Positions 12,975 to 32,434 are shown, counted from the stretch's first letter. The stretch is DNA of 64,000 nt from Escherichia coli (GCF_003991155.1 NZ_CP031293.1), one strand, 5' to 3'. Notes: a model not told the origin generated them from the letters alone. Numbers and translations are program-made.

Positions 12975-14198
12975 ATGGCTAAAAACAAAGGTATCTGTCG
13001 GAATAAAAAATGCAGTAATCCTGTTTCAGAATTTGATGAGGCAAATGCCTTAAGGTTATGCGATGATCATTATAAGCTATGGAAGCGAAATAAAGAGAAT
13101 CGTCGGGTCAGGAATATTTGTCGTATAATTAGTAGATATGACAAAAGTCTGGACTGGGAGATATTTTATAGAGTAAGAGATGCTGCAAAAAATAAAACGG
13201 GAAAGAGAATTATTGAGGACGCAAAAATATTACATCAATGGCGTGCTTCAAAGCAAGTAAGAAAAAGTTTTCACAAGGGTGTGCTTCGGTCACGGGAATG
13301 GCTTAATACACAGGAGTTACTGAGCAGAAAACATATATCTGTTACAGGTGAACTATTTAAATTTTACATAAAAGATATTATCAGATTATATTGCTATAAG
13401 TTTCTCTACAGCAGAGAATATCTTAATGAAAACGCATACAAAAAACGATATCAGAGAGATATTCACCCCAGAAAAGTTAATGTTCCGATACTGCAACTTG
13501 AAGTTGCATGGATAAATAATAATTGCCGCTCAAGTGATTCAAGCACTGATATTATTATCCTTCCGAGGATGATAAGAAGAATGGTTGTATTTAATTATAC
13601 GAAGATAAATAAACAATTAGAGAAAGTGTTGGGGGGGATAGCACGAAAACAAACCTCAGAAAGGAATAAAGGCGGTCTCTATACCAGAATAAAAAAAGAA
13701 AGTGACTTTCTTTCTATGGATAGATTTATGGTGGAAATAGAAAATATCATAAGACCTGAAAGGTTTCCTACATCAATTTATCCAGTCTTTTCACATTCAT
13801 TTATTGAACGAGAGCTTCCGCTACTGAATCTTGCCCGATCACAGTATAAAAGAGCAATAAGTAAAAGAGTGGCGAATTCAATTTTTTATACTTTGCAAAA
13901 AACTAACGTGGCATTATGGCTATATCTTGAAATGTTTGCTCTGGTGGCATTCATTAAACTGTATACAGGAAAAGGTTTTGAATTCATAAAGAACATGTGT
14001 GTATTTATCGATTATGAGAAAGGGATAATAAAATCCACACATGAAGAACTGCTGGGTGAAATTAAGCGTAACATTCAAGTGAATTTGAAGGTGAATCCTG
14101 ATAATTTTCCAGAGTTAATAGACATATACAATTCATGCTTTAGTGAAAATATATTGTCATATGATATTCAGGATGGTAATTTTAAATGGCGCTCATGA
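12975..14198 (+). CDS. Orphan hypothetical protein, 407 aa, AT-rich, lysine/arginine-rich with N-terminal Cys/His cluster
   Basis: Long uninterrupted ORF in strongly AT-rich DNA, divergent from the GTPase gene; no family recognised. Confidence 0.6.
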   Translation: MAKNKGICRNKKCSNPVSEFDEANALRLCDDHYKLWKRNKENRRVRNICRIISRYDKSLDWEIFYRVRDAAKNKTGKRIIEDAKILHQWRASKQVRKSFHKGVLRSREWLNTQELLSRKHISVTGELFKFYIKDIIRLYCYKFLYSREYLNENAYKKRYQRDIHPRKVNVPILQLEVAWINNNCRSSDSSTDIIILPRMIRRMVVFNYTKINKQLEKVLGGIARKQTSERNKGGLYTRIKKESDFLSMDRFMVEIENIIRPERFPTSIYPVFSHSFIERELPLLNLARSQYKRAISKRVANSIFYTLQKTNVALWLYLEMFALVAFIKLYTGKGFEFIKNMCVFIDYEKGIIKSTHEELLGEIKRNIQVNLKVNPDNFPELIDIYNSCFSENILSYDIQDGNFKWRS

Positions 14199-15434
14199 TG
14201 TAAAAATATTAATTTCACATTACATATTAATTATTCACAAAAAACATATAATTAATTTCAATGAGTTACATATAAAAATGTTGATGATTAGCCAGCTTAG
14301 TATGGTTATGCAATGTGATGCTTAACGCTTACAGATAATAACACATTCATATGAGCTATATATCATAATATTCAATAATCATGATATGCTAATCTGATTA
14401 TGGATAAAAATTACTGAATGACGCCATATTATGATTGGCAGTGTTTCCTGTATACGATGACTTATCTCTCCCGCATCATATGGGGGCACGTTTCTTAGGA
14501 AAAGTGACGGGGTTACAGAAGCCAATTACGATAGTTTGTTGTAGAGTTATCACGAGTTTTTGTTGTTCTGAAGACGGAATCAAAAAAATAATTCCAGAGT
14601 AAACCTGTCTGTTTTTTGACCAGTAAAGATCCATGCTGGCCGTGAAAAACTGAAATCAACACTCAGTCTGCATGGATGTCTGAAGATATTGAGAATGTCG
14701 GGAATGGTACTATATACGTATTATACAGACATATCTTCACTAAGTGTTATACACGCATTTTCATAAACAATTCTACAAGTGTTTTCATTAAGCATTGCTG
14801 TACACATTGTTTGATCTGATACACATCCAGTTTAGTAAATCTTTACGTTAGCTAAAATCAGTTTAAAGCTGCTACAAAACAATTTTTCTTGTTTAAGTAA
14901 TCAGGATGATATTCTATTTTTCTGAAGTTACGTTTAACCTTTTCTTAGTTTTTGTGTTTTTAGTCGTTAACCTGAGACAAGTGTCTTTATGTAAAAACGC
15001 AAATCCGGCTGAGATAACCTGGCGTGATTTACTGTGTGCTTACGATGATTTTGTTAAATGGTTTTATGGATGATTTTGTAACGATGAGATTGATGAGATG
15101 ATTAACTGGCCCTGGTGTTTTTTCTCAGCGCAAGACTCTTTTCAGGAAAAGCGTGATGATTGGTTCTGGTGTTTTGATTCAGATGAGGTTTACGTTATCG
15201 ATGGTTAACCGTTTTTATGGAGCGTAGTTAAAAGTAACGTTTTCAGTATAAGAAAATCGATTCTGATGTTGGTGGTTTTTGTTCTTGGGGCGGGGGTGTC
15301 TGTAAACAGGTTTTAATCGCGCTGTTCGGCTCTGTGATTGAGTTGTGTGGTTAAGCTGTAGGTGTGGTGTGATCTTACACAGCAATAGTGGACACGCGGC
15401 TAAGTGAGTAAACTCTCAGTCAGAGGTGACTCAC

Positions 15435-15734
15435 ATGACAAAAACAGTATCAACCAGTAAAAAACCCCGTAAACAGCATTCGCCTGAATTTCGCAGTGAA
15501 GCCCTGAAGCTTGCTGAACGCATCGGTGTTACTGCCGCAGCCCGTGAACTCAGCCTGTATGAATCACAGCTCTACAACTGGCGCAGTAAACAGCAAAATC
15601 AGCAGACGTCTTCTGAACGTGAACTGGAGATGTCTACCGAGATTGCACGTCTCAAACGCCAGCTGGCAGAACGGGATGAAGAGCTGGCTATCCTCCAAAA
15701 GGCCGCGACATACTTCGCGAAGCGCCTGAAATGA
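15435..15734 (+). CDS. insE: IS3 transposase OrfA
   Basis: [29 protein letters not shown]... matches IS3 OrfA; ORF-track start 15426 is an upstream GTG. Confidence 0.85.
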
Positions 15735-16597
15735 AGTATGTCTTTATTGAAAAACATCAGGCTGAGTTCAGCATCAAAGCAATGTGCCGCGTGCTCCGGG
15801 TGGCCCGCAGCGGCTGGTATACGTGGTGTCAGCGGCGGACAAGGATAAGCACGCGTCAGCAGTTCCGCCAACACTGCGACAGCGTTGTCCTCGCGGCTTT
15901 TACCCGGTCAAAACAGCGTTACGGTGCCCCACGCCTGACGGATGAACTGCGTGCTCAGGGTTACCCCTTTAACGTAAAAACCGTGGCGGCAAGCCTGCGC
16001 CGTCAGGGACTGAGGGCAAAGGCCTCCCGGAAGTTCAGCCCGGTCAGCTACCGCGCACACGGCCTGCCTGTGTCAGAAAATCTGTTGGAGCAGGATTTTT
16101 ACGCCAGTGGCCCGAACCAGAAGTGGGCAGGAGACATCACGTACTTACGTACAGATGAAGGCTGGCTGTATCTGGCAGTGGTCATTGACCTGTGGTCACG
16201 TGCCGTTATTGGCTGGTCAATGTCGCCACGCATGACGGCGCAACTGGCCTGCGATGCCCTGCAGATGGCGCTGTGGCGGCGTAAGAGGCCCCGGAACGTT
16301 ATCGTTCACACGGACCGTGGAGGCCAGTACTGTTCAGCAGATTATCAGGCGCAACTGAAGCGGCATAATCTGCGTGGAAGTATGAGCGCAAAAGGTTGCT
16401 GCTACGATAATGCCTGCGTGGAAAGCTTCTTTCATTCGCTGAAAGTGGAATGTATCCATGGAGAACACTTTATCAGCCGGGAAATAATGCGGGTAACGGT
16501 GTTTAATTATATCGAATGTGATTACAATCGGTGGCGGCGGCACAGTTGGTGTGGCGGCCTCAGTCCGGAACAATTTGAAAACAAGAACCTCGCTTAG
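15731..16597 (+). CDS. insF: IS3 transposase OrfB (DDE integrase domain; made as OrfAB fusion by -1 frameshift)
   Basis: 288 aa with DDE motif region (…HTDRGGQY…CYDNA…). Confidence 0.85.
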
Positions 16598-16911
16598 GCC
16601 TGTGTCCATATTACGTGGGTAGGATCAGTGTTGCTGTTGATTTACAGCGCCAGAAAGCGTTCTGATTGCGTTTCTGACGTTTTGTTTGCGCGTTCTGTTG
16701 ATCCGTTTCCCTTCAGGCTTTGTAGTTTTTAAAAAACATTTATGCCGTTGTTGTGTGTTTTACTCTGCGTGTAGGTTTATTTTTTCTTCGTGGGGGATTC
16801 ATTCTGTTTTAATCAGGAGCCATTGGCGTTGCTCAATGGCGGGATGCCGTAAAGTTTTACCGCAGTGATTAATGATGTGAAGTCAATCCAAATCAACGGA
16901 GATCTCTCATC

Positions 16912-17643
16912 ATGAATCAACCAATACACAATGCTTACTGGTTATCCCGTTTTGAAAGTATTCTCAACAGTGCCCTGGCGCAACACCGTGCCGTCTCGTT
17001 AATCCGGGTGGATTTACGTTTCCCTGAGTATATGCCTGTCACCATCATGGATCCCGATCCGGATTCAGCGGTGATTTCCCGTTTTTTCGCATCCCTGAAA
17101 GCCAAAATTCAGGCTTACCAGCGGAAAAAAAGATGGGCCAATCAGCGTGTGCATGCAACCAGCCTGCGTTATTTCTGGTGCCGGGAGTTCGGCAAGATGT
17201 ATGGCAGGAAACATTATCACGTGATATTACTGCTCAACAAAGATACCTGGTGCTCGCTCGGGGATTTCAGCGAACCGTCTTCGCTGGCGACGATGATCCA
17301 GGAGGCATGGTGCAGCGCCCTGCATCTTGAGCCCTGGCAAGGCGATGGCCTGGTCCATTTTTCCAGGTGGACGCCTTCCCGTAAACCGACATCGTCTGAT
17401 GCTCGCCCTTCTTCCGATGACACGCCTTTGTCGGGTGGATGTTCTGATACCAGGAAGGCTTCAGACAAAAAGCCAGGTGAAGCCGCTGTGCTCTGGATCA
17501 AGCGTGGTGATGTGGAAGCGCTGCAGAAAGCCCGGAACAGAGCCAGTTATCTCGTGAAATATGAGACGAAGCAGCATGACGGTTCCGGGCAACGTAATTA
17601 TGGTTGCAGTCGTGGGCCGGGGCGTCTACTGGATGGCAGGTGA
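16912..17643 (+). CDS. YagK/YfjJ-family protein (inovirus Gp2-like domain)
   Basis: 243 aa; …SLIRVDLRFPEY… and …HYHVILLL… motifs typical of the family. Confidence 0.55.
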   Translation: MNQPIHNAYWLSRFESILNSALAQHRAVSLIRVDLRFPEYMPVTIMDPDPDSAVISRFFASLKAKIQAYQRKKRWANQRVHATSLRYFWCREFGKMYGRKHYHVILLLNKDTWCSLGDFSEPSSLATMIQEAWCSALHLEPWQGDGLVHFSRWTPSRKPTSSDARPSSDDTPLSGGCSDTRKASDKKPGEAAVLWIKRGDVEALQKARNRASYLVKYETKQHDGSGQRNYGCSRGPGRLLDGR

Positions 17644-18163
17644 ACCCGGTAAAACAGCATCCGGTGCCTGAGCGTATACCACGGTCAGGACGTTGGCTGA
17701 CGCCCTTAGCTCGTTTTCTGATAATCGCCCTGAAGTCATGAAACGGTATTTTTATCTGCTTCCATTCTCATGTTCATATTTCCCCTTACACTTTCACTGT
17801 CTGTCATTGGAAGTACCGATTTATTTTGGTGCTGCTCACTTACTGCCATTCACGGAAGAGGATAGTGGTGAACCGTACGATCCTGACTGCTGGCGAGGGA
17901 AGGTTCAGAACTGGTATGAGGTTTAGTGCTGGAAGATGACTTTGAATCCCGGACTGAGCAGTGAGGGGGCAGTGGGAGGATGCTCTGGTGTAACAGGCCT
18001 GGATTGCAAAATACAAAACCGGTTGTACACTCGTAACGGGCAAAAGGATACGGGCAATAACACGTGGTACCCGGTGAGACAGGATCTTGTATCGCATTAC
18101 CGGGAATATTCTGACAGGTGAAATGTTCTGATAAGAATCATCCTGAGGGAGGATACAACGGAT

Positions 18164-18616
18164 ATGCACGTTATTAACAGCGGCATTCGTGATGTGAAAT
18201 TTGGTGAAAATGTGAAAGTCGTCATGCCAGTAAACCTCTATGAATGTGAACTGGGGGATGATGTTTTTATCGGTCCCTTTGTGGAAATACAGAAGGGATG
18301 CATCATTGGCAAGCGGAGCCGAATTCAGTCCCACAGTTTCATCTGTGAGAACGTCATTTTAGGTGATGGCTGTTTCATCGGTCATGGCGTAACTTTTGCT
18401 AATGATCTTTTTAAGTGTGGTGGTCCCGATGCCTCTGCAGAAAGCTGGATACGTATCGTATTAGGTAACACTGTAACAGTGGGTAGCGGAGCGACTATTT
18501 TAACAACAGAAATTTGCAGTGGAGCAGTGATTGGGGCTGGTAGTGTGGTTACAAAGCCCGTGCTGGTAAAAGGCGTGTATGCCGGTAATCCAGCCAGACT
18601 TTTGAGAACGCTTTAA
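18164..18616 (+). CDS. Hexapeptide-repeat (left-handed beta-helix) acetyltransferase
   Basis: 150 aa with repeated [LIV]G..[LIV] hexapeptide pattern. Confidence 0.65.
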   Translation: MHVINSGIRDVKFGENVKVVMPVNLYECELGDDVFIGPFVEIQKGCIIGKRSRIQSHSFICENVILGDGCFIGHGVTFANDLFKCGGPDASAESWIRIVLGNTVTVGSGATILTTEICSGAVIGAGSVVTKPVLVKGVYAGNPARLLRTL

Positions 18617-19151
18617 TTATTATATTTACAAATCGTAAGCCAGAATTGACTCCAGACCATTATGTGCCTTATTCACCATGAGTGAAATGCGGGATGAGCC
18701 TGCAAGTTAAGAGGATATCGGAAACCAGCAACCAGGGCAGTGAGAGCGCTGTCGGGGTCATTGATATCTCCGAAGGGAAGCCCTGGTATAAGGTGTTTGC
18801 ATAAAATTATTAAACAGGCTCATTTTTAGCGATCCTCATGAAATTCATCGTAACATCCTGAATATCTTATGGTGTTTCCTGTCATCTCCGGTATTTATTC
18901 CGTTCATGCAAATAACCTGATGAAACAGGGCAACGCCATAAAACCGGATAAGGACAACATGGATTAACGATAAAAATTGTGATCCTGTTTTCATTTTTCA
19001 CTTTTTGATTCTGGACTGGTATTTACATTTCTAAAAACAGGCATAAAGTGAACACATGTTTGATTTTGAATATATGTTCAACTCTATCTGCGTGGTCGAA
19101 TAGAAATACAGATTTATTATTTTTGTGTTTTTAAATGTCAGGAGATGTGCC

Positions 19152-20087
19152 ATGTGTGATAAGGAATACATCATCACAATTGGCTCTGCCAATATAGATA
19201 TAGCCGGATATTCGTATGCCTCCTTAAATTATGCTGATTCTAACCCGGGGAAGATTAAATTCACGCCCGGAGGTGTGGGGCGTAATATTGCACATAATCT
19301 TGCTCTGCTGGGTAAAAAATCATGGCTGATGTCAGCTGTGGGAGATGATTTCTACGGGCAATCATTATTAGCACAAACGACTCAGTCCGGCGTTAATGTT
19401 GATAAATGTCTGATTGTTAATGGAGAAAATACCTCAAGTTATTTATCACTTCTCGATAAAACCGGTGAAATGTTGGTGGCAATAAATGACATGACGATTA
19501 GTGAACATATTTCAGCTGAGTTTTTATCACAGCATATTGATTTTATTCAGGGAGCGAAGGTTATTGTTGCAGACTGTAATATCAGTGAGTCAACACTTGT
19601 CTGGCTACTGAATAATGCAGGTAAGGTTCCGGTATTTGTTGACCCGGTATCTGCATGGAAGTGTGTCAAAATTCGTGAACATTTAGCACAAATTCATACT
19701 CTCAAGCCCAACCGGCTTGAAGCAGAAACACTCAGTGGTATTTCGCTTTCAGATCGGAATGATGCTGAAAAAGTGGCGGTATGGTTCCATACACATGGTC
19801 TGAATCGCCTTGTGCTCAGCATGGGGGGGGATGGAGTTTATTACAGCGAACTGTACGGAGCCAGCGGCTGGTCGCCGCCAGTAAAAACACAGGTGGTGAA
19901 CGTTACGGGGGCAGGGGATGCCATGATGGCAGGGCTGGCTTCCTGCTGGGTTGATAATATGCCATTTATTGATTCCATTCGATTTGCACAGGGGTGTTCA
20001 TCAATGGCGCTGGCCAGTGAGTATACCAATAATCCTGAATTATCTGTTGCTAACGTTAAAAGCTTAGTGGAGAAACAGAATGTCTGA
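19152..20087 (+). CDS. PfkB-family kinase, pseudouridine kinase (PsuK/YeiC)-like
   Basis: ORF 19125..20087 trimmed to Met10 after an AGGAGA ribosome-binding site; PfkB motifs GGVGRNIA and GAGDA. Confidence 0.75.
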   Translation: MCDKEYIITIGSANIDIAGYSYASLNYADSNPGKIKFTPGGVGRNIAHNLALLGKKSWLMSAVGDDFYGQSLLAQTTQSGVNVDKCLIVNGENTSSYLSLLDKTGEMLVAINDMTISEHISAEFLSQHIDFIQGAKVIVADCNISESTLVWLLNNAGKVPVFVDPVSAWKCVKIREHLAQIHTLKPNRLEAETLSGISLSDRNDAEKVAVWFHTHGLNRLVLSMGGDGVYYSELYGASGWSPPVKTQVVNVTGAGDAMMAGLASCWVDNMPFIDSIRFAQGCSSMALASEYTNNPELSVANVKSLVEKQNV

Positions 20088-21015
20088 AATAACCATTTCT
20101 TCTGAATTACTGCAAATTTCACCGGAAGTACAGGATGCCATTAACAGTAAAAAACCTGTTGTTGCTCTCGAGTCAACAATTATCTCACATGGTATGCCTT
20201 TTCCTCAGAATGCTCAGACGGCTATTGAAGTCGAAGAAACTATACGTAAACACGGAGCAGTACCAGCCACCATTGCCGTTATTGGCGGTGTAATGAAAGT
20301 CGGGTTAAGTAAAGATGAGATTGAATTACTGGGTCGCGAAGGACATAACGTTACCAAAGTCAGTCGCCGGGATTTACCTTTCGTTATTGCTGAAGGAAAA
20401 CATGGTGCAACAACGGTAGCTTCAACCATGATTATTGCTGCTCTTGCCGGAATTAAAGTTTTTGCCACAGGAGGAATTGGCGGCGTTCATCGCGGTGCAG
20501 AACACACTTTTGATATTTCAGCCGACCTACAGGAACTGGCACATACTAATGTCACCGTGGTTTGTGCAGGCGCGAAATCCATTCTCGATTTAGGGTTAAC
20601 CACGGAATATTTAGAAACATTTGGTGTACCTTTAATTGGCTATCAGACAAGATCATTGCCGGCATTTTTTTGCCGCACCAGTCCGTTTGAGGTCAGTATA
20701 CGTCTGGACAGTGCAAAAGAGATTGCCCGCGCGATGGCAGTGAAATGGCAAACCGGCCTGAACGGTGGTCTGGTTGTTGCCAATCCGATTCCGGAAGCTT
20801 ACGCCATGGCGGAAGAGAAAATTAATGCAGCAATTGACCAGGCCGTAAAAGAAGCGGAAGTGCAGGGCATTACCGGTAAAGAAAGCACACCGTTCCTGCT
20901 GGCACGGGTGGCAGAATTAACCGGTGGTGACAGTCTGAAATCAAATATTCAGCTGGTATTCAACAACGCAGTTCTGGCCTGTGAGATAGCAAAAGAATAT
21001 CAACAAATTGTCTGA
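20080..21015 (+). CDS. Pseudouridine-5'-phosphate glycosidase (PsuG/YeiN, IndA family)-like
   Basis: 311 aa, collinear with PsuG; start overlaps the upstream kinase stop. Confidence 0.8.
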   Translation: MSEITISSELLQISPEVQDAINSKKPVVALESTIISHGMPFPQNAQTAIEVEETIRKHGAVPATIAVIGGVMKVGLSKDEIELLGREGHNVTKVSRRDLPFVIAEGKHGATTVASTMIIAALAGIKVFATGGIGGVHRGAEHTFDISADLQELAHTNVTVVCAGAKSILDLGLTTEYLETFGVPLIGYQTRSLPAFFCRTSPFEVSIRLDSAKEIARAMAVKWQTGLNGGLVVANPIPEAYAMAEEKINAAIDQAVKEAEVQGITGKESTPFLLARVAELTGGDSLKSNIQLVFNNAVLACEIAKEYQQIV

Positions 21016-21098
21016 TATAAATGAACGGGCAGTGTGAGGTCGCCCGAAATTACCTGAACCAGATTCCGTGTCTGGTTCAGGTATAAGGGGAGAGCATT

Positions 21099-22349
21099 AT
21101 GGACATCATGAGAAGTATAGTGGGAATGGCAGTATTGCTGATAATTGCATTTCTACTATCAGTGAATAAAAAACGTATCAGTTTACGTACCACAGGAGCT
21201 GCACTGGTTCTTCAAATCGCGATTGGTGGGATCATGCTCTATTTCCCCCCGGGGAAATGGCTGGTTGAACAGGCTGCACTGGGCGTACATAAAATTATGT
21301 CTTACAGTGATGCGGGCAGTGCCTTTATTTTTGGCTCTCTGGTAGGGGACAAAATGGACGTACTGTTCGATGGGGCGGGTTTTATCTTCGCCTTCCGTGT
21401 ACTTCCTGCCATCATTTTTGTTACAGCGCTTATCAGTCTGCTGTACTACATCAGAGTGATGGGGGGGCTTATCCGTATTCTGGGGGGGATTTTTCAGAAA
21501 GCTCTGAACATAAGTAAAGTTGAGTCATTTGTGGCAGTAACGACAATTTTCCTGGGGCAAAACGAGATCCCGGCAATTGTAAAACCGTTTATTAATCGTC
21601 TGAATCGTAATGAATTATTTACTGTCATCTGCAGTGGGATGGCTTCGATTGCCGGTTCAATGATGATCGGCTATGCCGGGATGGGGGTTCCGATTGACTA
21701 TTTGCTGGCGGCGTCGTTGATGGCGATCCCGGGGGGGATCCTTTTTGCCCGTATTCTGAGTCCGGCCACAGAAGAATCAAAAGTCACTTTTGAAAATCTT
21801 TCTTTCACTGATACTCCTCCCAAAAGTGTTATTGAAGCAGTGGCCAGCGGGGCGATGACCGGGTTGAAAATCGCTGTCGGAGTTGCAACGGTAGTGATGA
21901 CCTTTGTTGCTATTATTGCTCTGATTAACGGTATAATCGGTGGTATCGGAGGCTGGTTTGGTTATGGTAATATTACCCTTGAGGGCATTTTCGGCTGGAT
22001 TTTGGCTCCCCTTGCGTGGATCATGGGCGTTGACTGGGCGGATGCTTCACTGGCAGGAAGTCTGATTGGTCAGAAGCTGGCAATTAACGAATTTGTTGCT
22101 TATCTCAATCTTTCACCCTATTTACAGCCAGGCAGTACGCTTGATGTGAAAACCACCGCAATTATTTCTTTTGCACTGTGTGGTTTTGCCAACTTTGGCT
22201 CCATTGGTGTGGTGGTGGGTGCCTTTTCAGCCATATCACCTCAGCGTGCACCTGAAATTGCACAACTGGGCATGCGTGCACTGGCGGCGGCCACCCTGTC
22301 AAACCTGATGAGTGCGACTATCGCTGGTTTTTTCATTGGGCTGGCATAA
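21099..22349 (+). CDS. NupC-family nucleoside transporter (PsuT/YeiM-like)
   Basis: 416-aa polytopic membrane protein with NupC-like sequence. Confidence 0.8.
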   Translation: MDIMRSIVGMAVLLIIAFLLSVNKKRISLRTTGAALVLQIAIGGIMLYFPPGKWLVEQAALGVHKIMSYSDAGSAFIFGSLVGDKMDVLFDGAGFIFAFRVLPAIIFVTALISLLYYIRVMGGLIRILGGIFQKALNISKVESFVAVTTIFLGQNEIPAIVKPFINRLNRNELFTVICSGMASIAGSMMIGYAGMGVPIDYLLAASLMAIPGGILFARILSPATEESKVTFENLSFTDTPPKSVIEAVASGAMTGLKIAVGVATVVMTFVAIIALINGIIGGIGGWFGYGNITLEGIFGWILAPLAWIMGVDWADASLAGSLIGQKLAINEFVAYLNLSPYLQPGSTLDVKTTAIISFALCGFANFGSIGVVVGAFSAISPQRAPEIAQLGMRALAAATLSNLMSATIAGFFIGLA

Positions 22350-22367
22350 AAAATACAATCCCGGGTG

Positions 22368-23462
22368 TTACCCCCGGGATGTTTTTAACAGATATTGCGC
22401 GTTATTAACGGAAAGTGTTGGGTTATTGATGCTGGTGCTGGCACGTGACAGTGCTGCACATGCCATCGCAAAGTGAGCACTTTCCTGGAAACTACTTCCT
22501 TCCAGAAAACTGTAAAGCAGACCTGCCATAAAGCCATCATCTGCACCAAAGCTGTCCACAACGGCATGAACGGGCGGTGTGAGCAGAAATTGTTCTCCCT
22601 CTCTTTGGCTACAGAAAACGGATTCATCTCCCATCCAGACAAAAATCTGTTGCACACCCTGCTGATGTAGTGCGTTCACTGCGGTGAGTAGATCGGTCTC
22701 ATTGTTGACAGGGGAACCCCATAATATCTCCAGTTCTTTTTGTGTGGGTTTCAGGGTATGGATATGCGGAAGCCAGTTTTTTACATTAACAGCCTTAAAT
22801 TTCGACACTGTATCAATAAAAACGGGAATGCCGTCAGCGACCGTAAAGATCCATTCAAGGGCGGCAGGTGTCAGATTACAGTCAGCCAGCACCACGCCAG
22901 CGTGACGGATTAACATACGTGAGGCGTCCAGCAACTGCGGCGTCAGTTGTTGCAGAATATGGGTATCATTAATCGCCATCACTGTTTCTGCCTGTAGGTC
23001 GGCGATGGAGACATAAGTTGAAGTATTTTGTCCGTTCAGTCGAATACAATTGGTGACATTAACGCCGGCCAGGCGGGTCTGCTCCAGTAATGTTTCGCCA
23101 TAAAAATCATTGCCTACAGCAGATATCAGATGCACATTGCGGCCCAGAAGGGCGAGATTATGGGCGATGTTGCGTCCGACACCTCCGGCAGAGCAGTAAA
23201 TACTGCCCGGACTGGAGGATTTCTGTGGATAATGGATATCCGCCACCCCACGGATATCCATGTTAATCGCCCCAAGAACAACACAGTATTCCTGTTCTGT
23301 CAGGATGTAGCCTTTCCCTTTAATCGCACCTTTGCGCATCAGATCCATAATGTGTGCAGCAACACGCGACCGACTGATTTGTAAAATCTCAGCAATTTCA
23401 TTCTGCTGGATCAGTGGGTTGTGACGCAGGATCCTGAGTATCTCTTTTTCTCTGTTGTCCAT
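22368..23462 (-). CDS. HTH-domain + PfkB kinase fusion protein (YeiI-like)
   Basis: 364 aa; N-terminal winged-helix (ILRILRHNPLIQQNEIAEILQISRSRVAAHI) plus PfkB kinase motifs. Confidence 0.75.
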   Translation of the reverse strand: MDNREKEILRILRHNPLIQQNEIAEILQISRSRVAAHIMDLMRKGAIKGKGYILTEQEYCVVLGAINMDIRGVADIHYPQKSSSPGSIYCSAGGVGRNIAHNLALLGRNVHLISAVGNDFYGETLLEQTRLAGVNVTNCIRLNGQNTSTYVSIADLQAETVMAINDTHILQQLTPQLLDASRMLIRHAGVVLADCNLTPAALEWIFTVADGIPVFIDTVSKFKAVNVKNWLPHIHTLKPTQKELEILWGSPVNNETDLLTAVNALHQQGVQQIFVWMGDESVFCSQREGEQFLLTPPVHAVVDSFGADDGFMAGLLYSFLEGSSFQESAHFAMACAALSRASTSINNPTLSVNNAQYLLKTSRG

Positions 23463-23900
23463 GATTATGCAACTGCCTGTTCGGTTTTTCGTCAGCGATC
23501 ATCAAAGTAAATAGCTTCGTTTTTCCCGGTGAACGTGAAGCTAGGGGAGATTATACTTCCGGATGTTCATTCAGGGCAGAAGAATAATACATCAGTTAAT
23601 TTTCTGTTAGTACTTTGTAGTCGAATGTTTGGGGAGTGTGTCTGAATGACAGCCAGATGGAATGACTTTTTGTAGCCAGGTCATGACTACGACTCATACG
23701 CTATTCTTAATTCTTATTTCTTTCCATTATACGCAAGTATTTTTAATTTAGGTTTATTACTATAATTATATTCACTTTGTCTTTATTCACTCTGTTTTTA
23801 CTTACTCTCTATCTTTACTCATTCCATTACTCTGACCCTCACCCGATTATACTTACTCCCTTCCTTGTCTAATCTTCATTGCCACCATTATCATGGTATC

Positions 23901-23927
23901 CACCTTCTCCACCTTCTCCACCTTCTC
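23901..23927. repeat. Tandem repeat 3 x CACCTTCTC inside a ~200-bp polypyrimidine (CT-rich) tract
   Basis: Direct reading of sequence. Confidence 0.6.
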
Positions 23928-24762
23928 CTTCATTCAATCATAACTACTGTAATTCATACGATACTCAGATAAGTTATTTTACTACGTTGTTGCTAATATC
24001 TACCTGTTATCAGTCTTCACTGAAACAGCAATTGATTTTAGTCATTATCCATAATGAACTGTATTGACTTAACGATGATTGTTGTTGACCTGAAGTGTTT
24101 TAACTATTCTGGTAAATATCAATACTTCTGTCATCACTGATTAACTGGATGTTTACTCTTTGATAAGGTATCCATGATTTCGTCATGTTTAACAGCGCAG
24201 GATAAACAATGAAATTAACAGAGTGAATTCCTGATTATATTTGTTCGTTTCTGATTATCTTGTATGTTAAACAAAATGAAAATTATCCATCCATGGTATA
24301 TTTTATTCTGGTACCGTGTACCCGTTAACGCTCATGTTTTGAAGTGAGTTGTTTTTAACAGATTAAATGAGAGTGTATGATTTTATCAGGTTACAGATAT
24401 GTGTTGGCCTTGTACACGTTTTTGCAGACTCACTGAGAGCAAGTTTGTAGTTTATGATGTGATTGGTCGCAATATGTTTCTTAATCTCCAGGTAGTGGGG
24501 TTTTAGCTCGTATTTTACAGTATTTCGTGATGTTTTATTGAGTCTGTATTTTCTTTACTCCTCGTTTATCTCATCTCTTTAGCTAATACCATCAGATAAT
24601 CCATTTCTTTCTGCATAATGCTGCGTATCGTTAATAACCCGTCGTATCCATTCTGCTACAGCATGCCTGATAAATACCATCTGTAAGTTATTACCGTTAT
24701 GAGCGAAAGCATTAATTCGTTCACAGAGCTTAAAACATCATTAACTTTCAGGAGTCATCAAC

Positions 24763-25329
24763 ATGCCTAAATCTTACACACCAAACTGGTTTTTTACCGC
24801 TTTACTTGACAATCACATCAATCAAATGCTGGCACGTTATTCCTGCCTGCGAGCTTTACGGATGGATTTCTTCTACAGGAAAGATACGCCTGATTTCTTA
24901 CAACCTGATCATCGCTGGCTTGAATTGCAGTTGCGTATGATGCTGGAACAGGTTGAACAATTTGAAAATATCGTTGGCTTCTTCTGGGTGATTGAATGGA
25001 CGGCTGATCATGGTTTTCATGCGCATGCGGTTTTCTGGATCGATCGTCAGAGGGTTAAAAAAATATATCCCTTTGCGGAGCGGATTACGGAATGCTGGCG
25101 GTCTATTACGCATAACAGCGGTTCGGTACATCGCTGTACATATCAGCCGCATTATACATACAACATCAACATTCCTGTGCGCCACAACGATCCTGAAAGC
25201 ATCAATAATATTCGCGGTGCCCTGCATTATCTGGCGAAAGAAGAGCAAAAAGACGGGTTGTGTGCCTACGGCTGCAATGAAGTTCCTGAACGTCCTGCTG
25301 CAGGGCGTCCTCGTAAGCCTCACTTCTGA
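24763..25329 (+). CDS. YagK/YfjJ-family protein (paralog)
   Basis: 188 aa; …LRALRMDFFYRKD… motif; upstream region similar to that of the 16912 gene. Confidence 0.5.
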   Translation: MPKSYTPNWFFTALLDNHINQMLARYSCLRALRMDFFYRKDTPDFLQPDHRWLELQLRMMLEQVEQFENIVGFFWVIEWTADHGFHAHAVFWIDRQRVKKIYPFAERITECWRSITHNSGSVHRCTYQPHYTYNINIPVRHNDPESINNIRGALHYLAKEEQKDGLCAYGCNEVPERPAAGRPRKPHF

Positions 25330-25575
25330 AGCTTAAGGCCTGAGCCTCCGCTCCTGGAAACACTCCGTCGGTAAAACCTTACCACCTTGCTTAATGATGT
25401 GAACTGAAGTCAACGGAGATCATTCATCCTGAACCTGAATCCGGTGTTCTGTCCCTTATCTTCCCGTTCTGCTTCAGTTCTTCACTTATTCCATCAACCC
25501 CATCCGCAAACCATAACACGTCAGCGCATCCACGGGCAGGACGCGTTGTGGGCTGCGCATAACGGAACATATCTT

Positions 25576-25959
25576 ATGAATGCTATTCCTTATTTCGACT
25601 ATAGCCTGGCACCCTTCTGGCCATCTTATCAGAACAAAGTCATCGGCGTCCTTGAGCGTGCGCTACGTGAGCAGTCCTGCGCCCGGGTACGGCGGATCCT
25701 GCTTCGCCTGCCGGGGGAACATGACAACATCTTCAGTGACAGAAAAACCTGGTTCGGTATGGCCTTTATCGAAACTGTCAGTGCGCTGATGAATGCAACC
25801 CCCGGACGCGACCTCTGCTGGCTCCTGACCCGTCATCCTGAAAAGCCGGAATACCACGTGGTGCTGTGTGTCAGACAGGAGTATTTCGACGGCCCTGAAC
25901 TGGACCGGCTGATTCTGGATGCCTGGAGCAACGTACTGGGCTTCGCGTCACCGGGTTAA
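25576..25959 (+). CDS. YagK/YfjJ-family-like protein, short (paralog or fragment)
   Basis: ORF 25444..25959 trimmed to Met45; …ARVRRILLRLPGEHD… and …YHVVLCV… motifs. Confidence 0.4.
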   Translation: MNAIPYFDYSLAPFWPSYQNKVIGVLERALREQSCARVRRILLRLPGEHDNIFSDRKTWFGMAFIETVSALMNATPGRDLCWLLTRHPEKPEYHVVLCVRQEYFDGPELDRLILDAWSNVLGFASPG

Positions 25960-26219
25960 GCAAAGCCGTATCAGAAGCAGATCACCCGGGATGTAGTACT
26001 GGACAGTCGTTCGCCGGACTGCGAAGACCTGTTTAAAGACCTGATCTGGGCATTCAGCGATTTTGCCCGCGATCGTCGTGGTGTGTGCGATCCGGAAGCT
26101 CGTTGCCTTGCCGGTAATCCCGGGTATCCCGGATCTGCAGGACCGTTCTGAAAACACGGCTCAGCATCTTCTTCCGCATTTGCACAACCTTCATAAATCT
26201 CACAAAGGACATTCTGACC

Positions 26220-26453
26220 ATGTTGACCACAACAAACCACGACAGCGTGTTGCTGCGTGCCGACGATCCCCTGATCGACATGAACTACATCACCAGTTTC
26301 ACTGGCATGACAGATAAATGGTTTTACAAGCTGATCAGTGAAGGCCATTTCCCTAAACCCATCAAACTGGGGCGCAGCAGCCGCTGGTACAAAAGTGAGG
26401 TGGAGCAGTGGATGCAGCAACGAATCGAGGAATCCCGGGGGGCAGCAGCATGA
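26220..26453 (+). CDS. AlpA-family phage/island transcriptional regulator
   Basis: …MNYITSFTGMTDKWFYKLISEGHFPKPIKLGRSSRWYKSEVEQWM… is a typical AlpA HTH. Confidence 0.7.
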   Translation: MLTTTNHDSVLLRADDPLIDMNYITSFTGMTDKWFYKLISEGHFPKPIKLGRSSRWYKSEVEQWMQQRIEESRGAAA

Positions 26454-26704
26454 AACGTGTTGTAATGCCGGCGCTGGTATTGCGGAAATCAGCCCTGTCC
26501 CCGATGCTGGCGACACTCCCGCTCATCTTTCAGCTGACTCCTCTGGTCAGCCAACTGTTTGTCATCATTTCCTGACTGATTCGTCATTCCCTTCGTCCCG
26601 CCAGTCGCTGGTGTTTGTATTGTACCGTGCCGGTGTTGATGTGCGCTTTCCGTGTGTCTGCACCGGCTTAACAAAATTCAACAGGGTTTGAAAAGGAACA
26701 TTTC

Positions 26705-27253
26705 GTGCAAATAACCGAAGCCTTAATTTCAGAGCCGGGAGACATCCGGCGTTTTGTTCAGCAGGCGGTGGACCACTGGCCGCATCTGCTGGCATTTTAC
26801 TTCACACTCCATTCGGCAGAAGGAAATATCAACGGGCGACAGATTCATGCATTCTGTACTTCCTTTTACCGACAGGTGCACGAACGTATTACTGAGCGTA
26901 ATCACACGGCCAGTCCATCCTCGCCGGTGGTATTACGCTGGTTGCGGGAACAACATGGAGGAGCAACAATACGATGCCTGTTGCTGCTCAGCCAGACGAG
27001 CATTTGCCATCCGCGGGCCAGTGCCACGGTTGATGAACAATGTTCGCAAGTGGTGGATTTGCTGCAACAGAGCTGGCAGGTGATAAGTGCTGGCGGACAA
27101 TGCCGGGTGGAAAGGTGTTTTCGGGTTGCCCGGGGTGATACATCCGGCCAGTATGTTGCGTTAAAAACAGTCGCATTGTCTCTGGGGTTACCGGTTGTGA
27201 CCGCCATTACCCATCGTCCGGTACAGCGCTGTACATTGATTACAGCTCAGTGA
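26705..27253 (+). CDS. Hypothetical protein (possibly degenerate YagK/YfjJ-family)
   Basis: 182-aa ORF downstream of alpA. Confidence 0.4.
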   Translation: MQITEALISEPGDIRRFVQQAVDHWPHLLAFYFTLHSAEGNINGRQIHAFCTSFYRQVHERITERNHTASPSSPVVLRWLREQHGGATIRCLLLLSQTSICHPRASATVDEQCSQVVDLLQQSWQVISAGGQCRVERCFRVARGDTSGQYVALKTVALSLGLPVVTAITHRPVQRCTLITAQ

Positions 27254-27484
27254 ATCAGCGCTTTCTGGCTTTTCGTCGGTCATTCTGTCAACGCCACGAT
27301 GTTTGACCGTTATGGGGATGCGGACGATTTCCTGCACAGCGTTGTTTCACGGTGGTGGATGATGCAGCACCGCTGTTAAAAACAGTCGTTCAGTCCTTTG
27401 TGTTACCGGTTATGACAACAATCAGCTGGTGATGGTCGTGTGAACCAGCTGCGCTTCCGTTGATTCTTATGGACTGATAAAGTT

Positions 27485-27859
27485 TTGTCTGCTGAATCTT
27501 TATACGGAATTCTTTTCAGTATGCGTACACGAATTGATTATCTGGCGGATAAATACAGTTTTACTGAGCTGAATGAGTCTCCCCGTCTTCGCCGGCAGTG
27601 GCAGGATGTTCTGGAGGAGTGTCGGCAGACAGAGGCAGGGCCAGAAGAACGGTTGCGTATTGCACTGTTGAATGTGGATTACGTCACCAGTTTTGAACTG
27701 CCTTTTCGCTTGTTGCTTACCCGTACACCACAACTGACTGCTATGCTGCGTGAAGAATGGGATATCAGCCAGAAAAATGTGGTGTTCAACGATAAACGCT
27801 TTGGCTGCGTGTACAGCCTGAAGGCCAGTCTTTGTGGTGTGCTTCAGGCCGATGCTTAG
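27485..27859 (+). CDS. Hypothetical protein
   Basis: 124-aa ORF; no family recognised. Confidence 0.35.
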   Translation: MSAESLYGILFSMRTRIDYLADKYSFTELNESPRLRRQWQDVLEECRQTEAGPEERLRIALLNVDYVTSFELPFRLLLTRTPQLTAMLREEWDISQKNVVFNDKRFGCVYSLKASLCGVLQADA

Positions 27860-27862
27860 GCG

Positions 27863-28315
27863 TTATACGAATCCGGCAGAGTAACGGAAGCCGCGTGTAT
27901 GGCTCATTCCCGGAGAAGAATCCACGATGTGCATGTAAGAGTGCCAACCGACATCACCACGGAAGCCCTGCAGCGTATCGGCAATGGTTTGTTCCAGACC
28001 ATGCCGCTTACAGACCTCGAAATCAGTCACCGTGCAAGGTTCATAACCGCCAATCTGAAATGCCACCACCACAAAATCGGCATCCTGTAAGGCTTCTTTC
28101 TGTTGGGTGTGGCAGGTGATTTTGCCGCTGGCCCCTGCTGAATCCATCAGCTTACGCACCACAATATGCGACTCTTCCCGGCGGGTGGGATCAATGTCCA
28201 TCAGGGCAATATGCGCCGTTTTCAGCGCCTCACGATGGAACACATCACCAAGAATATTTTTAACGAAAATCGTCGAACCAGCGCCGATAAATGTAATTTT
28301 GGGTGCAGACATCAT
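27863..28315 (-). pseudogene. melA: 5' fragment of alpha-galactosidase gene melA (GH4)
   Basis: MMSAPKITFIGAGSTIFVKNILGDVFHREALKTAHIALMDIDP… matches the MelA N-terminus; reading frame ends after ~150 codons. Confidence 0.7.
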
Positions 28316-28978: not shown

Positions 28979-29398
28979 AGTGTCCCCTAGTGTTGGCGCA
29001 AAAAAGACCAAAACGGCAGTGGCAATGGCATTCTCCAGCGTTTAAACGGAGAGCCGGATGCGTTGAAAGGTGCTGCTCCGGTTCGGAGAGGAGATACTGG
29101 GAAATAGTTCGACTACCCCCTATCTCTTACTCTACTCTGGACAGGTTAACGATGAGATACCTCACAGTAATATTTGCTCTGTTCGCAAGAAAGCTAGTGG
29201 GATGGGTAATGTTGTTGGACTGAATCGCCACGGATAATCAGGCATTTCTGAGTTGTTTCAAGAAGGCGGCATTATTTGTGCTGCTCGTATCCCGGTCATC
29301 AGTGAACCGGTGAACGTAAATCAGCCGGAGGCACGATTTGGGCAAAAGAGATTTCCTGACAGGCAAGAAGCCAGCGAATGGCTGGCTTCCTGAAGGAT

Positions 29399-30646
29399 TT
29401 AGCCAAATTTAGGTAACACGTTAAAGACGTTACCGAACCAGCATAAAATTACGGTTATACCAAAGAGAATGACAATCGCCGGAATAAGATTGCCGCCCCA
29501 GACTGTGAACATCTGATTGGGAAATTTCTTGCGGGCTTTGATTGCCAGCACTGCGGGAATAATGACCGCCCAGATGGTGGCGCACAGTCCGGCACCGCCG
29601 ATCCCGTAAATAAAGCCGTTCGGGAAGATCAGATACAACAACGCGGGTGGCAGGAAGGTTAACAGCACGGTTTTGAAACGCCCGGCGTGGGAGTTATCAA
29701 TCTTAAACAGATCCGCCAGATAATCGAACAATCCCAGCGTGACACCAAAGAACGAACTGGCAACAGCTAAGTTAGAGAACACCAGCAGGCAAAACTCGAT
29801 AATCCCATGCTGTTTGGTGCCGAGGAATGATTTCACCAGCGAATCAACGTTGCCGCCTGAGGAGATTATCGCCTTAAAGCTTTCTCGCGGGATATTCCCC
29901 ATCGTGCAATAGAGCCAGAAGAGATAAATCACCAGCGCCAGCAGCGAACCGAAGACCACGCTTTTGATTAGCTTATCTTTGCGTTTTCCATAGCAAATAA
30001 TCAGGCTGGGAATATTGCCGTGGAAACCAAATGACGCCAGACACACCGGCAAAGCCATAAAGATATACGGGAAGTAAGACTTACCCGCAGTGGAGCTGGC
30101 TGCATCGCGCAGAATGGAATAATCGGCCTGGAAGAAGAGAGAGCCAAACACGATCACAAAGGAGATAATCTTCAGCCCGAGGAACAATGAGGTAATACGA
30201 CTGGCGGCTAACGAACTTATCCACAATACGCTGGCAACGAAAATGGCTGTGCAGACTCCGACAATACGTGGATTAGCGTGATAACTCAGATTCATTGATA
30301 TCGTTTCGCTAATGATTGCGCCGTTAGCAGAAATATAGGCATAAGTGAGGATATAGAGAACGAAGGCAACGGTAATACCGCTGATAATGTTCCAGGTGTT
30401 ACCGATTAAATCTTTGGCGATGGTGTTAAAACTGGATCCGACGGGATAGTTTAAATTTGCTTCTAATAACAATAACCCGGAATGAAGCATTGAAAACCAG
30501 GCAATGATAAGGATAAAGGCTCCCCAGAAAAACCAGGCACCGGCAAGATCAACAGGTAAAGCAAACATCCCACCGCCAATTACCGTACCGGCTATAACCA
30601 TAACACCCCAAAATGCAGAGTGTTTTTTTTCAGCTTGTTCAGTCAT
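29399..30646 (-). CDS. tnaB: Low-affinity tryptophan permease TnaB
   Basis: 415 aa; matches E. coli TnaB. Confidence 0.9.
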   Translation of the reverse strand: MTEQAEKKHSAFWGVMVIAGTVIGGGMFALPVDLAGAWFFWGAFILIIAWFSMLHSGLLLLEANLNYPVGSSFNTIAKDLIGNTWNIISGITVAFVLYILTYAYISANGAIISETISMNLSYHANPRIVGVCTAIFVASVLWISSLAASRITSLFLGLKIISFVIVFGSLFFQADYSILRDAASSTAGKSYFPYIFMALPVCLASFGFHGNIPSLIICYGKRKDKLIKSVVFGSLLALVIYLFWLYCTMGNIPRESFKAIISSGGNVDSLVKSFLGTKQHGIIEFCLLVFSNLAVASSFFGVTLGLFDYLADLFKIDNSHAGRFKTVLLTFLPPALLYLIFPNGFIYGIGGAGLCATIWAVIIPAVLAIKARKKFPNQMFTVWGGNLIPAIVILFGITVILCWFGNVFNVLPKFG

Positions 30647-30737
30647 GATGCCACCTTTAGATGAAGGCTATTTTTATTATTGAGGATGTAGGGTAAGAGA
30701 GTGGCTAACATCCTTATAGCCACTCTGAGTGTTTTAA

Positions 30738-32153
30738 TTAAACTTCTTTCAGTTTTGCGGTGAAGTGACGCAATACTTTCGGTTCGTAGGTAAAGGTTAA
30801 CCCTTTAATATTCGCCGCGTTCTCTTTCACATGTTTAAAGGCTTCAATAATGAAGTCCATATGTGTTTGAGTATATGTTGCGCGCGGAATGGTTAAACGC
30901 AGCAGTTCAGCCGGGCATGGCAGTTGTTTACCGGTTTTCGGATCGCGGCCTAACAGGAAAGAGCCAATTTCTACCGCACGGATACCGGCGACTTTATACA
31001 GCTCGCAGGCCAGCGCCTGTGCCGGGAACTGATCTGCCGGGATATGCGGCAGTAGTTTACCGGCATCAACGAATGCCGCGTGACCGCCCGCCTGCTGGCA
31101 GACAACGCCAATCTCTTCCAGGCCATCGACCAGATACTGCACCTGCGCAATACGATAAGCCAGCCAGTCCAGATTCATGCCGTCATACAGACCTACCGCC
31201 AGACGCTCCATAGCGCCGCCTTCCAGGCCGCCATATGTCGGGAAGCCTTCCTGCACCACGCAAAGGGTTCTGCATTCGGTGTACACATCAAAGAAGCTGT
31301 CGTCTTTCATGCACAGCAGGCCGCCCATCGGCACCATCGCATCTTTCTTGGCGGACATCGCCAGCATATCGGCATATTTGTAGGTTTCGCGGGTGATTTG
31401 CTCGATGGTCCAGTCTTTGTATTCTGCTTCACGCTGCTTGATGAAATAGGCGTTTTCGGCAAAGCGTGCGGAGTCCATTACCACCGGAATATCGTATTTC
31501 TTCGCGATGCTGTACATCGCTTTTAAGTTTGCCAGTGAAACCGGCTGACCACCTGCGGAGTTACTGGTGATGGTTGCAACGATATACGGCACGTTATTCG
31601 GGCCAACTTCTTCAATACCGCGTTCTAATCCCTCAAGGTCAAAGTTGCCTTTAAAGTCGTAACGCACGCCCGTATCGAAGGCTTCTTTGATATAGACGTT
31701 ACGCACGGTACAGCCGTTAATCTGGCTATGGCCCTGCGTGGTATCAAAGAAATAGTTAGAGAACGCCACCATTTTGCTGCGATCCAGGCCTTTTTCCTGC
31801 TCGCGTTTTTTAATCAGTACCGGAATATAGATTTGCTCTGCACCACGGCCCTGGTGAGTCGGAATAGTGTATTGATAACCAAAGATATTTTTCACTGACT
31901 CGGCTAACGCGTAGTAGCTGCGGCTGCCGCTGTAAGCTTCGTCGCCGCGCATCATCGCGGCCTGCATACTCTGCGTCACCGCCCCGGTACCGCTGTCGGT
32001 CAGTAAATCGATAAACACATCTTCACTATCCAGCAGGAACGGGTTCATGCCGGCTTTAATAATTGCTTCTTCACGATAAGCGCGAGTGGTACGTTTTACT
32101 GGCTCAATAACACGAATGCGGAACGGTTCAGGGAGATGTTTAAAGTTTTCCAT
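30738..32153 (-). CDS. tnaA: Tryptophanase TnaA
   Basis: ORF 30738..32168 trimmed to [11 protein letters not shown] (471 aa); matches E. coli TnaA. Confidence 0.9.
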
Positions 32154-32359
32154 TACGTAATCCTTCATTTATTTTAAGGACAGAAAATTACGGAGATATT
32201 GCAAATGCAATACCCGATAGTTCGCTAAAATATTTGCAAGAGACATCATTTATAAAAATGAATGATAGTCTTTACAAAAGCAGAAATAAGATATGCCAAA
32301 CAGACAGGTTAGATGGAATTCAATCTATTTGACAAAAATGATGGTTACAGAAAGGCAAG

Positions 32360-32434
32360 TTAAGGGTGGTGTTCAACAATCTTGTTGTCGATATTGAACC
32401 ATTTTGAGGTCACACATATATGTAAGATATTCAT
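32360..32434 (-). CDS. tnaC: tna operon leader peptide TnaC (24 aa)
   Basis: Minus-strand ATG AAT ATC TTA CAT ATA TGT GTG ACC TCA AAA TGG TTC AAT ATC GAC AAC AAG ATT GTT … CCT TAA gives MNILHICVTSKWFNIDNKIV..P with Trp12 and Pro24, ~205 bp upstream of tnaA. Confidence 0.75.
   Translation of the reverse strand: MNILHICVTSKWFNIDNKIVEHHP

Follow-up and report, generated by a model that had tools for sequence, protein, structure and literature searches.

The E. coli 'y-ome' includes the YagK/YfjJ family. The representatives of this family in K-12, encoded by yfjJ in the alpA-yfjI-yfjJ group of CP4-57 and by yagK of CP4-6, are found as one copy each in transfer RNA (tRNA)-linked islands with an AlpA-type regulator nearby. 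The HUH endonucleases, which include inovirus gpII/G2P, the Rep proteins of parvoviruses and adeno-associated virus (AAV), RAYT and IS200/IS605 TnpA, carry a His-hydrophobic-His (HUH) motif on a central beta-strand and a Tyr downstream of it. Additionally, Gp2-like proteins and AlpA are among the likely core genes of the Pseudomonas transfer-messenger RNA (tmRNA) islands I23, I44 and I55 (2025 PNAS, PMC12595487). Here we describe a stretch of 64,000 nucleotides from the chromosome of E. coli (NZ_CP031293.1; hereafter the window) that carries four open reading frames (ORFs) of the YagK/YfjJ type, starting at positions 16912, 24763, 25576 and 26705 (paralogs 1 to 4), together with an AlpA gene and an element of about 68 nt that is present twice, upstream of paralog 1 (element A) and upstream of paralog 3 (element B). 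The genes are of the same family as those of CP4-57 and CP4-6, with all motifs shared between these and paralog 1, and they lie in the same kind of tRNA-linked island, again with an AlpA-type regulator nearby. However, there are four clustered copies in the window, two of them without the HUH or Tyr residues, while paralogs 1 and 2 have both, as the HUH endonucleases do.

Organization of the selC island and its backbone module

The region is part of the backbone of a single 45-kb island integrated at selC. Within it, three ancient YagK/YfjJ paralogs (1, 3 and 4) are arranged around the AlpA gene in a module that is conserved and widely distributed, and the fourth (paralog 2, at 24763) was brought in with a segment of cargo. 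The overall explanation that we favour is that of a backbone module of one selC island with ancient Rep-like paralogs, AlpA and a conserved cis-regulatory leader, and we regard this as probable, though well short of certain.

An earlier note on this DNA, made from the sequence alone, had placed the four ORFs at the positions given above and all four do start there, the one at 25576 being interrupted by a TAA codon. All are on the plus strand, and the RefSeq names used here are taken from the annotation of a record identical to the window. Paralog 1 (16912-17643, 243 aa) is annotated as an inovirus Gp2 family protein and paralog 2 (24763-25329, 188 aa) as a YagK/YfjJ domain-containing protein. 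Paralog 3 (25576-26151) is a pseudogene, annotated as a hypothetical protein with an internal stop; the TAA is at 25957-25959 (codon 128), where the intact 186-aa orthologue of sequence type 131 (ST131) has GAA. Paralog 4 (26705-27253, 182 aa) is annotated as a hypothetical protein. The AlpA gene (26220-26453, plus strand) encodes a 77-aa helix-turn-helix protein of the excisionase/transcription-regulator type (RefSeq, helix-turn-helix regulator) that matches Pfam PF05930 (2e-10) and the PHROG family 'excisionase and transcriptional regulator' (6e-10). The conserved module continues with a DNA-binding ECs1377-family gene (27485-27859, plus strand), which is truncated in the window to 124 aa, compared with about 207-219 aa elsewhere, having been cut by IS66 remnants.

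Many complete E. coli genomes are 100% identical to the window over 16000-28000, and at least 80% of this 12-kb arrangement is found in 372 of 5,426 complete E. coli genomes. In MS10711, BEN2908, ET479 and enterotoxigenic E. coli (ETEC) O6:H16, a more compact version is found, in which the homologue of 16628-17763 is joined directly to 25344 onward; the junctions were read in MS10711, where the position equivalent to 17763 joins 25344 directly. The compact order is a 407-aa ORF, element A, the 16912-type Gp2 gene, element B, the 25576-type gene, AlpA, the 26705-type gene and ProQ/FinO, with the last position taken by either ECs1377 or ProQ. The sequence that these modules do not have is a 7.58-kb segment (17764-25343) between the 16912 gene and element B. 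It contains an acyltransferase gene, psuK and psuG (pseudouridine kinase and glycosidase), a nucleoside transporter gene, a sugar-kinase/regulator gene and paralog 2, and its edges carry just a 6-nt imperfect repeat (GCTTCC/GCCTCC).

The contents of this interval differ among strains. In ST131, W409, ST95-32 and JE86, a 24763-type gene lies immediately upstream of element B, in the slot that is otherwise held by the 16912-type gene, and in W409 a YfjI-family gene precedes it, an order also seen in CP4-57. Both types are present in the window. In JE86 the interval also holds insertion sequence (IS) elements, an acyltransferase gene and helix-turn-helix and H-NS remnants, and in a contig from a metagenome-assembled genome (MAG) it holds about 1.75 kb of other DNA. 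The distance from A to B is variable: four strains have 936 nt, the MAG has 4.1 kb and the window has 8.5 kb. In the lineage of the window, the pseudouridine-utilization operon and paralog 2, an alternative occupant of the first slot, lie between the first gene and element B, an IS3 copy has inserted upstream of element A and a nonsense codon has arisen in the 25576 gene.

Upstream of paralog 2 there is an AT-rich tract of 1.3 kb (23463-24762; 33-37% GC) with no annotated gene. It is conserved with the 24763-type gene in other strains, and JE86 has an H-NS gene fragment there.

The selC gene is at 50000-50094 on the minus strand and beside it, also on the minus strand, is a tyrosine integrase ORF of 393 aa (48523-49704). 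The distal attachment (att) repeat of 24 bp (4874-4897, plus strand) is a perfect match to the last 24 nt of selC, and its partner is within selC itself (50000-50023). There is no further copy of the 24-bp repeat inside the island. The island therefore spans 45 kb with a single att pair and a single integrase, and all four paralogs are inside it; a tyrosine integrase by a tRNA gene with flanking direct repeats is what characterizes a CP4-57-type island.

The earlier note had proposed that the four genes are duplicated modules, possibly from more than one integrative element. On this explanation at least two elements would have integrated in tandem at selC and decayed afterwards, which we consider unlikely but the most serious of the alternatives. 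The island is heavily mosaic, with copies or fragments of IS3, IS66, IS110 and IS1 and with fragments of IncFII RepA and of a group II intron. In different strains one and the same slot is filled by either a 16912-type or a 24763-type gene, so that sequences of two module variants are combined in the window, where the 7.58-kb segment carries the 24763-type gene, and the position of the 24763-type module of W409 behind a YfjI-family gene recalls CP4-57. However, the island has a single integrase, a single att pair and no att copy in its interior, which gives no hint of a second complete element, and because three of the four paralogs are adjacent in one module in many strains, a second element is not needed to account for them. 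The four proteins are only 9-20% identical to each other in pairwise comparisons based on a multiple sequence alignment, and DNA similarity is limited to the one 68-nt element; they are ancient paralogs and do not stem from a recent duplication. To speak of duplicated modules is therefore misleading: it is the leader that is duplicated, and three of the paralogs stand consecutively in a single conserved module elsewhere.

The duplicated upstream element

Element A (16849-16916, plus strand) is about 68 nt long and consists of a palindrome (GTAAAGTTTTAC), a first block (TTAATGATGTGAA), a second block (TCAACGGAGATC) and the ATG of the 16912 gene. Element B (25371-25433, plus strand) consists of a palindrome (GGTAAAACCTTACC) followed by the same two blocks. 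The palindrome arms are 6 bp in length. There are exactly two occurrences of TTAATGATGTGAA-N(3-14)-TCAACGGAGATC in the 64-kb window, where none is expected. A and B are 73.5% identical with a 5-nt indel and share exact blocks of 13 and 12 nt; the alignment score is 65, compared with 15.3 ± 2.9 in 2000 shuffles. The stretch upstream of the 16912 and 25576 genes that the earlier note had called near-identical is therefore real, but the identity holds for the blocks and not overall, and B is not adjacent to the start of the 25576 gene.

The two copies are placed differently. The second block in copy A reads ATCAACGGAGATC and contains a GGAG Shine-Dalgarno sequence, and element A continues into the start codon (ATG) of the 16912 gene. 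In element B there is a CTG (25429-25431) at the site homologous to this ATG. Element B begins 42 nt past the stop codon of the 24763 gene and ends about 143-145 nt before the start of the 25576 gene. As the frame is open from 25429, we considered whether the 25576 ORF could be longer at its N terminus and begin in element B, but rejected this because remote homologues begin at the annotated Met and because the spacer has been replaced in other strains.

Alignment found no extended similarity to A or B upstream of the 24763 or 26705 genes. There is a palindrome, GTAA-N4-TTACC, at 24683-24695 (plus strand), 68-80 nt upstream of the start of the 24763 gene, which is conserved in orthologous loci. 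This pattern has four sites in the window compared with 0.47 expected. The palindrome and an inverted 10-mer are all that the region has in common with A and B. The possibility that this region is a third, decayed copy of the element was rejected, as local alignment scores were equal to those of shuffles. The 12 nt found right after this palindrome (at 24695/24696) in five other strains are missing here.

Each of the two copy types is present in approximately 1,900 of the 5,426 complete E. coli genomes. Among 100,044 species-representative genomes, the two-block pattern was found in only a single Enterobacteriaceae MAG contig, which has both copies, so the element is lineage-restricted. The element is not present in the regions upstream of yfjJ and yagK in K-12. 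The core of A and B is invariant across divergent loci, and across eight strains element B is 84-96% identical (coding sequence, 91-93%). In three of these eight strains, the spacer between B and its gene has been replaced by unrelated sequence (51-53% identity). That element B has been kept while the spacer was replaced is modest evidence of constraint.

These observations lead us to suggest that the leader was probably inherited when the gene was duplicated in tandem together with its 5' control region. The two copies may have been kept as a binding or control site, either an operator or promoter-proximal, for a DNA-binding protein of the module, for which AlpA or a Gp2-like protein would be candidates.

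A different role for the two copies would be to serve the HUH-type Gp2 proteins in cis, one as an origin or nick site and the other as a terminator, the interval between them being a cargo slot that is filled or exchanged by a rolling-circle mechanism of the IS91/ISCR kind. Both the HUH motif and the Tyr motif are kept in paralogs 1 and 2, the two elements form direct repeats with a small palindrome that could fold into a hairpin, the interval between them varies in length and is different again in JE86, and the inserted segment ends on its right side 27 nt short of element B, where the conserved block begins. However, the left edge (17764) is not at element A but lies 850 nt downstream of it, the junctions carry only the 6-nt imperfect repeat, and the hairpins are no more stable than those of shuffled sequences (z -0.2 to -1.0). 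Homologous recombination within the shared segment downstream would explain the right boundary just as well. Circular or tandem products are not known, and we consider such a mechanism improbable. The fuller version, in which A and B are nick/origin and termination sites of a dedicated slot loaded with cargo by Rep, and in which the HUH-less paralogs and AlpA act as specificity or regulatory partners, is if anything slightly more improbable. If it were true, E. coli islands would hold a dedicated slot where operons such as the pseudouridine-utilization genes are exchanged.

The idea that the element is a structured RNA, either a small RNA or a leader able to mask the ribosome-binding site, is very improbable: the AUGAUG of the 13-mer in copy A can pair with a CAUCAU that overlaps the start codon, but copy B has no start codon at that place and does not preserve this pairing, Rfam gave no match at the element at gathering and E-value thresholds, and the folding energies of A and B are like those of shuffles (z -1.0 and -0.4), folding as single-stranded DNA being likewise no better than shuffles.

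Membership of the four proteins in the YagK/YfjJ superfamily

Paralog 1 is the only one of the four proteins to pass Pfam directly, matching PF11726 (YagK_YfjJ_C, 'inovirus Gp2') with 124.3 bits (6e-36) against a gathering cut-off of 25.8 bits. It also matches PF23343 (REP_ORF2-G2P; 5.5e-9) and PHROG replication-initiation families (1e-5 to 6e-3). The comparison with CP4-57 that the earlier note had called for bears out the relationship, as paralog 1 is 31% identical to K-12 YfjJ (E 8e-29), and it is 29% identical to YagK (E 8e-27). For paralog 2, the matches to PF11726 (20.7 bits, 4e-4) and PF23343 (5e-5) are both below threshold, and hhalign of this single sequence against the YagK/YfjJ alignment gave 70% (E 4e-5). 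Direct BLASTP among the four proteins found only the match between paralogs 1 and 2 (E 8e-5); in the pairwise alignments proposed by the earlier note, the other pairs are not significant by this method. In the Pfam search there was no direct match of paralogs 3 and 4 to PF11726.

The relationship of paralogs 3 and 4 to the family is seen through intermediates. An exhaustive phmmer search with the intact 25576-type protein against 1.8 billion representatives gave 37 matches and the family is essentially confined to E. coli. Two of the matches, P0319 and P0323, are remote relatives that align over their full length (33% identity; E 2.5e-13 and 1.3e-7). P0319 passes PF11726 (41.8 bits, 1.4e-10) and matches paralog 3 with 3e-24. 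With the two remote relatives included, the 25576-type family aligns with the YagK/YfjJ alignment in hhalign at 97.4% (E 1.5e-11). Close orthologues of paralog 4 bear the precomputed label PF27752.1 and some have been named 'inovirus Gp2 family protein' by NCBI. A tblastn search of plasmids with the 26705-type protein found Klebsiella homologues (25-32% identical; 3e-5) that are annotated as 'inovirus-type Gp2 protein'. The Klebsiella Gp2-type protein matches paralog 4 with 8e-13 and paralog 1 by BLASTP with 1e-5, and against PF11726 it scores 18.4 bits (E 0.0022), which is below the 25.8-bit cut-off. When two Klebsiella bridges are included, the 26705-type family aligns with the superfamily alignment at 95.7% (E 1e-8), and the reversed-sequence control gave E 0.75.

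From these comparisons we regard it as settled that all four ORFs are members of the YagK/YfjJ superfamily, although remote-homology methods were needed to establish this. The four are ancient paralogs within a single Rep-like family that probably has an HUH fold. Paralog 4 is the most divergent of the four YagK/YfjJ-like proteins. There were no informative matches for the four proteins in NCBIfam or PADLOC, which gives no link to known defence systems. That the 25576 and 26705 genes are unrelated to YagK/YfjJ and resemble it by chance, leaving only two family members, is very hard to believe: neither protein has a direct Pfam match, their pairwise BLASTP comparisons are not significant, shallow alignments without the bridges gave hhalign values of only 72% (25576-type) and 15-20% (26705-type) and hhalign of one family against the other found no match, but the bridging homologues lift both alignments while the reversed control stays at background, P0319 and the Klebsiella protein connect directly to PF11726 and to paralog 1, respectively, and the predicted order of secondary structure is identical and the synteny conserved.

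Motifs, predicted fold and possible activity

The family is characterized by the motif series RVDLRxP ... HYHxxLLLNxD ... AWxSAL ... YLxKxxTK ... GxRxFGCS, and the motif alignment is colinear. Paralog 1 has all of these motifs: RVDLRFP (17005-17025), HYH (H101-Y-H103, within 17212-17238), the Tyr motif SYLVKYETK (17545-17571) and the GCS tail. Paralog 2 has RMDFFY, HAH (H86-A-H88, within 25018-25044), CWRSI, the Tyr motif HYLAKEEQK (25225-25251) and YGCN. The candidate catalytic Tyr is that of S-Y-LVK in paralog 1 and of H-Y-LAK in paralog 2. In paralog 3, RILLRLP and AWSNVL are kept but the HUH motif is degenerate (EYH, within 25849-25875), SDFARDRR is found at the Tyr site and there is neither a Tyr nor a GCS motif. 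In paralog 4 the first strand is not conserved, both His residues have been lost (IRC at the HUH position, within 26969-26995) and there is no conserved Tyr; what it keeps is the pattern of strands and helices together with LLLLSQ and SWQVI, the Tyr region not being alignable. Remote homology places the four proteins in one superfamily, but the likeness is far weaker than the shared family motifs of the earlier note had implied, and paralogs 3 and 4 have no intact HUH and Tyr motifs.

Paralog 1 also contains a Ser/Pro/Asp-rich low-complexity insert of about 40 aa (17362-17481; aa ~151-190). The insert is present in the 243-aa E. coli orthologues but not in YfjJ, YagK or homologues from outside E. 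coli, and several database variants of the protein are frameshifted within it.

AlphaFold2 (AF2) models were available for the 25576-type protein (predicted local distance difference test, pLDDT, 81) and for the 26705 protein. Both have the same order of elements, alpha-beta-alpha-beta-beta-alpha-beta-alpha. The top matches of the 25576-type model in the PDB were the RAYT TnpA-REP (4er8), parvovirus NS1, the AAV Rep nuclease domain and IS200 TnpA. The YagK/YfjJ profile had no match among PDB sequences.

On the basis of what is known of the HUH superfamily and of the PF23343 and PHROG 'replication initiation' matches, paralogs 1 and 2 are candidate Rep-like nicking or DNA-binding proteins of the island. 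Paralogs 3 and 4, if they act at all, would be non-catalytic DNA-binding or accessory partners. If the family is one of HUH nickases, two of the copies could be active and two not.

Several points weigh against the explanation that we favour. The PDB matches of the 25576-type model are weak (E 3e-3 to 6e-2; template modelling (TM) score 0.33-0.39) and include generic ferredoxin-like folds. The 26705 model is just moderate (pLDDT 66) and its matches are mixed ferredoxin-like folds, IS200/IS605 TnpA among them. We found no functional study of any member of the YagK/YfjJ family in the literature. With respect to the leader, element A abuts a start codon and element B is about 145 nt from its gene, so the two copies cannot work identically. 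When promoters and terminators were scanned for, neither element showed a sigma-70-like promoter, and the case for an operator or promoter role therefore comes from the conservation and the palindrome alone. Finally, the location of element B at a recombination boundary, and not a function, could in part account for its conservation.

Other features of the window

The IS3 insertion at 15371-16627 (plus strand) is 220 nt upstream of element A. It has no counterpart in MS10711 or ET479 and is particular to the lineage of the window. There is an IS1 copy near the integrase (47520-48287) that is missing from the otherwise identical AR Bank #0349 record, in which selC is offset by 777 bp. At the head of the module, a 407-aa ORF (12975-14198, plus strand) is conserved and is divergent from a YeeP/YfjP-like GTPase gene; there were no matches to it in Pfam, NCBIfam, PHROG or PADLOC.

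At the other end of the module there is a 42-nt direct repeat with 79% identity (27160-27201 and 27375-27416), in which the 3' end of the 26705 gene is found again 215 nt further downstream. The MAG contig joins 27168 straight to 27375, which suggests that the repeat is a recombination or deletion scar. Further downstream, amid IS and phosphotransferase-system (PTS) gene debris, is the group II intron fragment (29049-29135, plus strand; Rfam RF00029, 50.1 bits, above the gathering score). A tnaC-tnaA-tnaB tryptophanase operon (approximately 29399-32450, minus strand) lies within the selC island rather than in its K-12 chromosomal context and is bordered by IS110 and IS66 remnants. Fragments of IncFII RepA and TnpB are found at approximately 44.8-45.1 kb.

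The first 391 nt of the window (minus strand) are the 3' part of a gene for a type III secretion chaperone of the SycD/LcrH family, which adjoins yicS according to the annotation of an identical record. A SipB-like translocator gene lies just beyond the edge of the window, and the chaperone gene itself is outside the selC island.

Comparison with known systems

The observation is real and the locus is slightly under-annotated. The 25576-type and 26705-type proteins, which RefSeq lists as 'hypothetical protein' and each of which occurs in many E. coli islands, can now be placed as HUH-less branches of the YagK/YfjJ family. YagK/Gp2, a YagK-like protein, AlpA and a second YagK-like protein, together with the conserved leader of 68 nt, can be described as a backbone unit that recurs in E. 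coli islands and on Klebsiella plasmids. A candidate DNA site beside paralogs with and without catalytic residues also offers an entry point for assays of binding, nicking and regulation. Our understanding of genomic islands is unchanged by the finding.

In CP4-57, whose type of backbone runs int, alpA, yfjI and yfjJ, with yfjP and a cbtA-type toxin-antitoxin pair further along, alpA and yfjJ are beside the integrase, in the same orientation and accompanied by YfjI (DUF3987). This is not the arrangement at selC, where the AlpA gene and the four paralogs are on the plus strand, 21-32 kb from the minus-strand integrase (about 22 kb for the module). There is no YfjI-type gene in the window, and W409 has one upstream of the module.

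The resemblance to HUH endonucleases extends to the PF23343 and PHROG 'replication initiation' matches, which range from sub-threshold to significant. In contrast with those enzymes, however, the proteins of the window have no sequence match to a solved structure and only weak fold matches, they have no attached helicase or other domain, and two of the paralogs have no catalytic residues.

As in the window, the Gp2-like gene of the Pseudomonas tmRNA islands adjoins alpA in a recurrent backbone with variable cargo (PMC12595487). Those islands differ in genus and in integration site, the pair is at the end opposite the integrase, there is a single Gp2-like gene and no repeated leader was reported.

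Klebsiella IncFIB/IncHI1B plasmids (e.g. NZ_CP110517.1) have the same order of a canonical YagK/YfjJ gene, AlpA and a 26705-type paralog. The synteny there is Gp2, AlpA, two zinc-ribbon genes, the 26705-type Gp2 and DUF2913. This module differs from that of the window in being plasmid-borne, in having the two zinc-ribbon genes between AlpA and the second paralog and in having no 25576-type gene; the A/B blocks are absent and only a GTAA-N4-TTAC palindrome is present. Compared with all of these systems, the arrangement at selC is an ordinary and widespread E. coli island backbone of a known family, and not a new kind of system.

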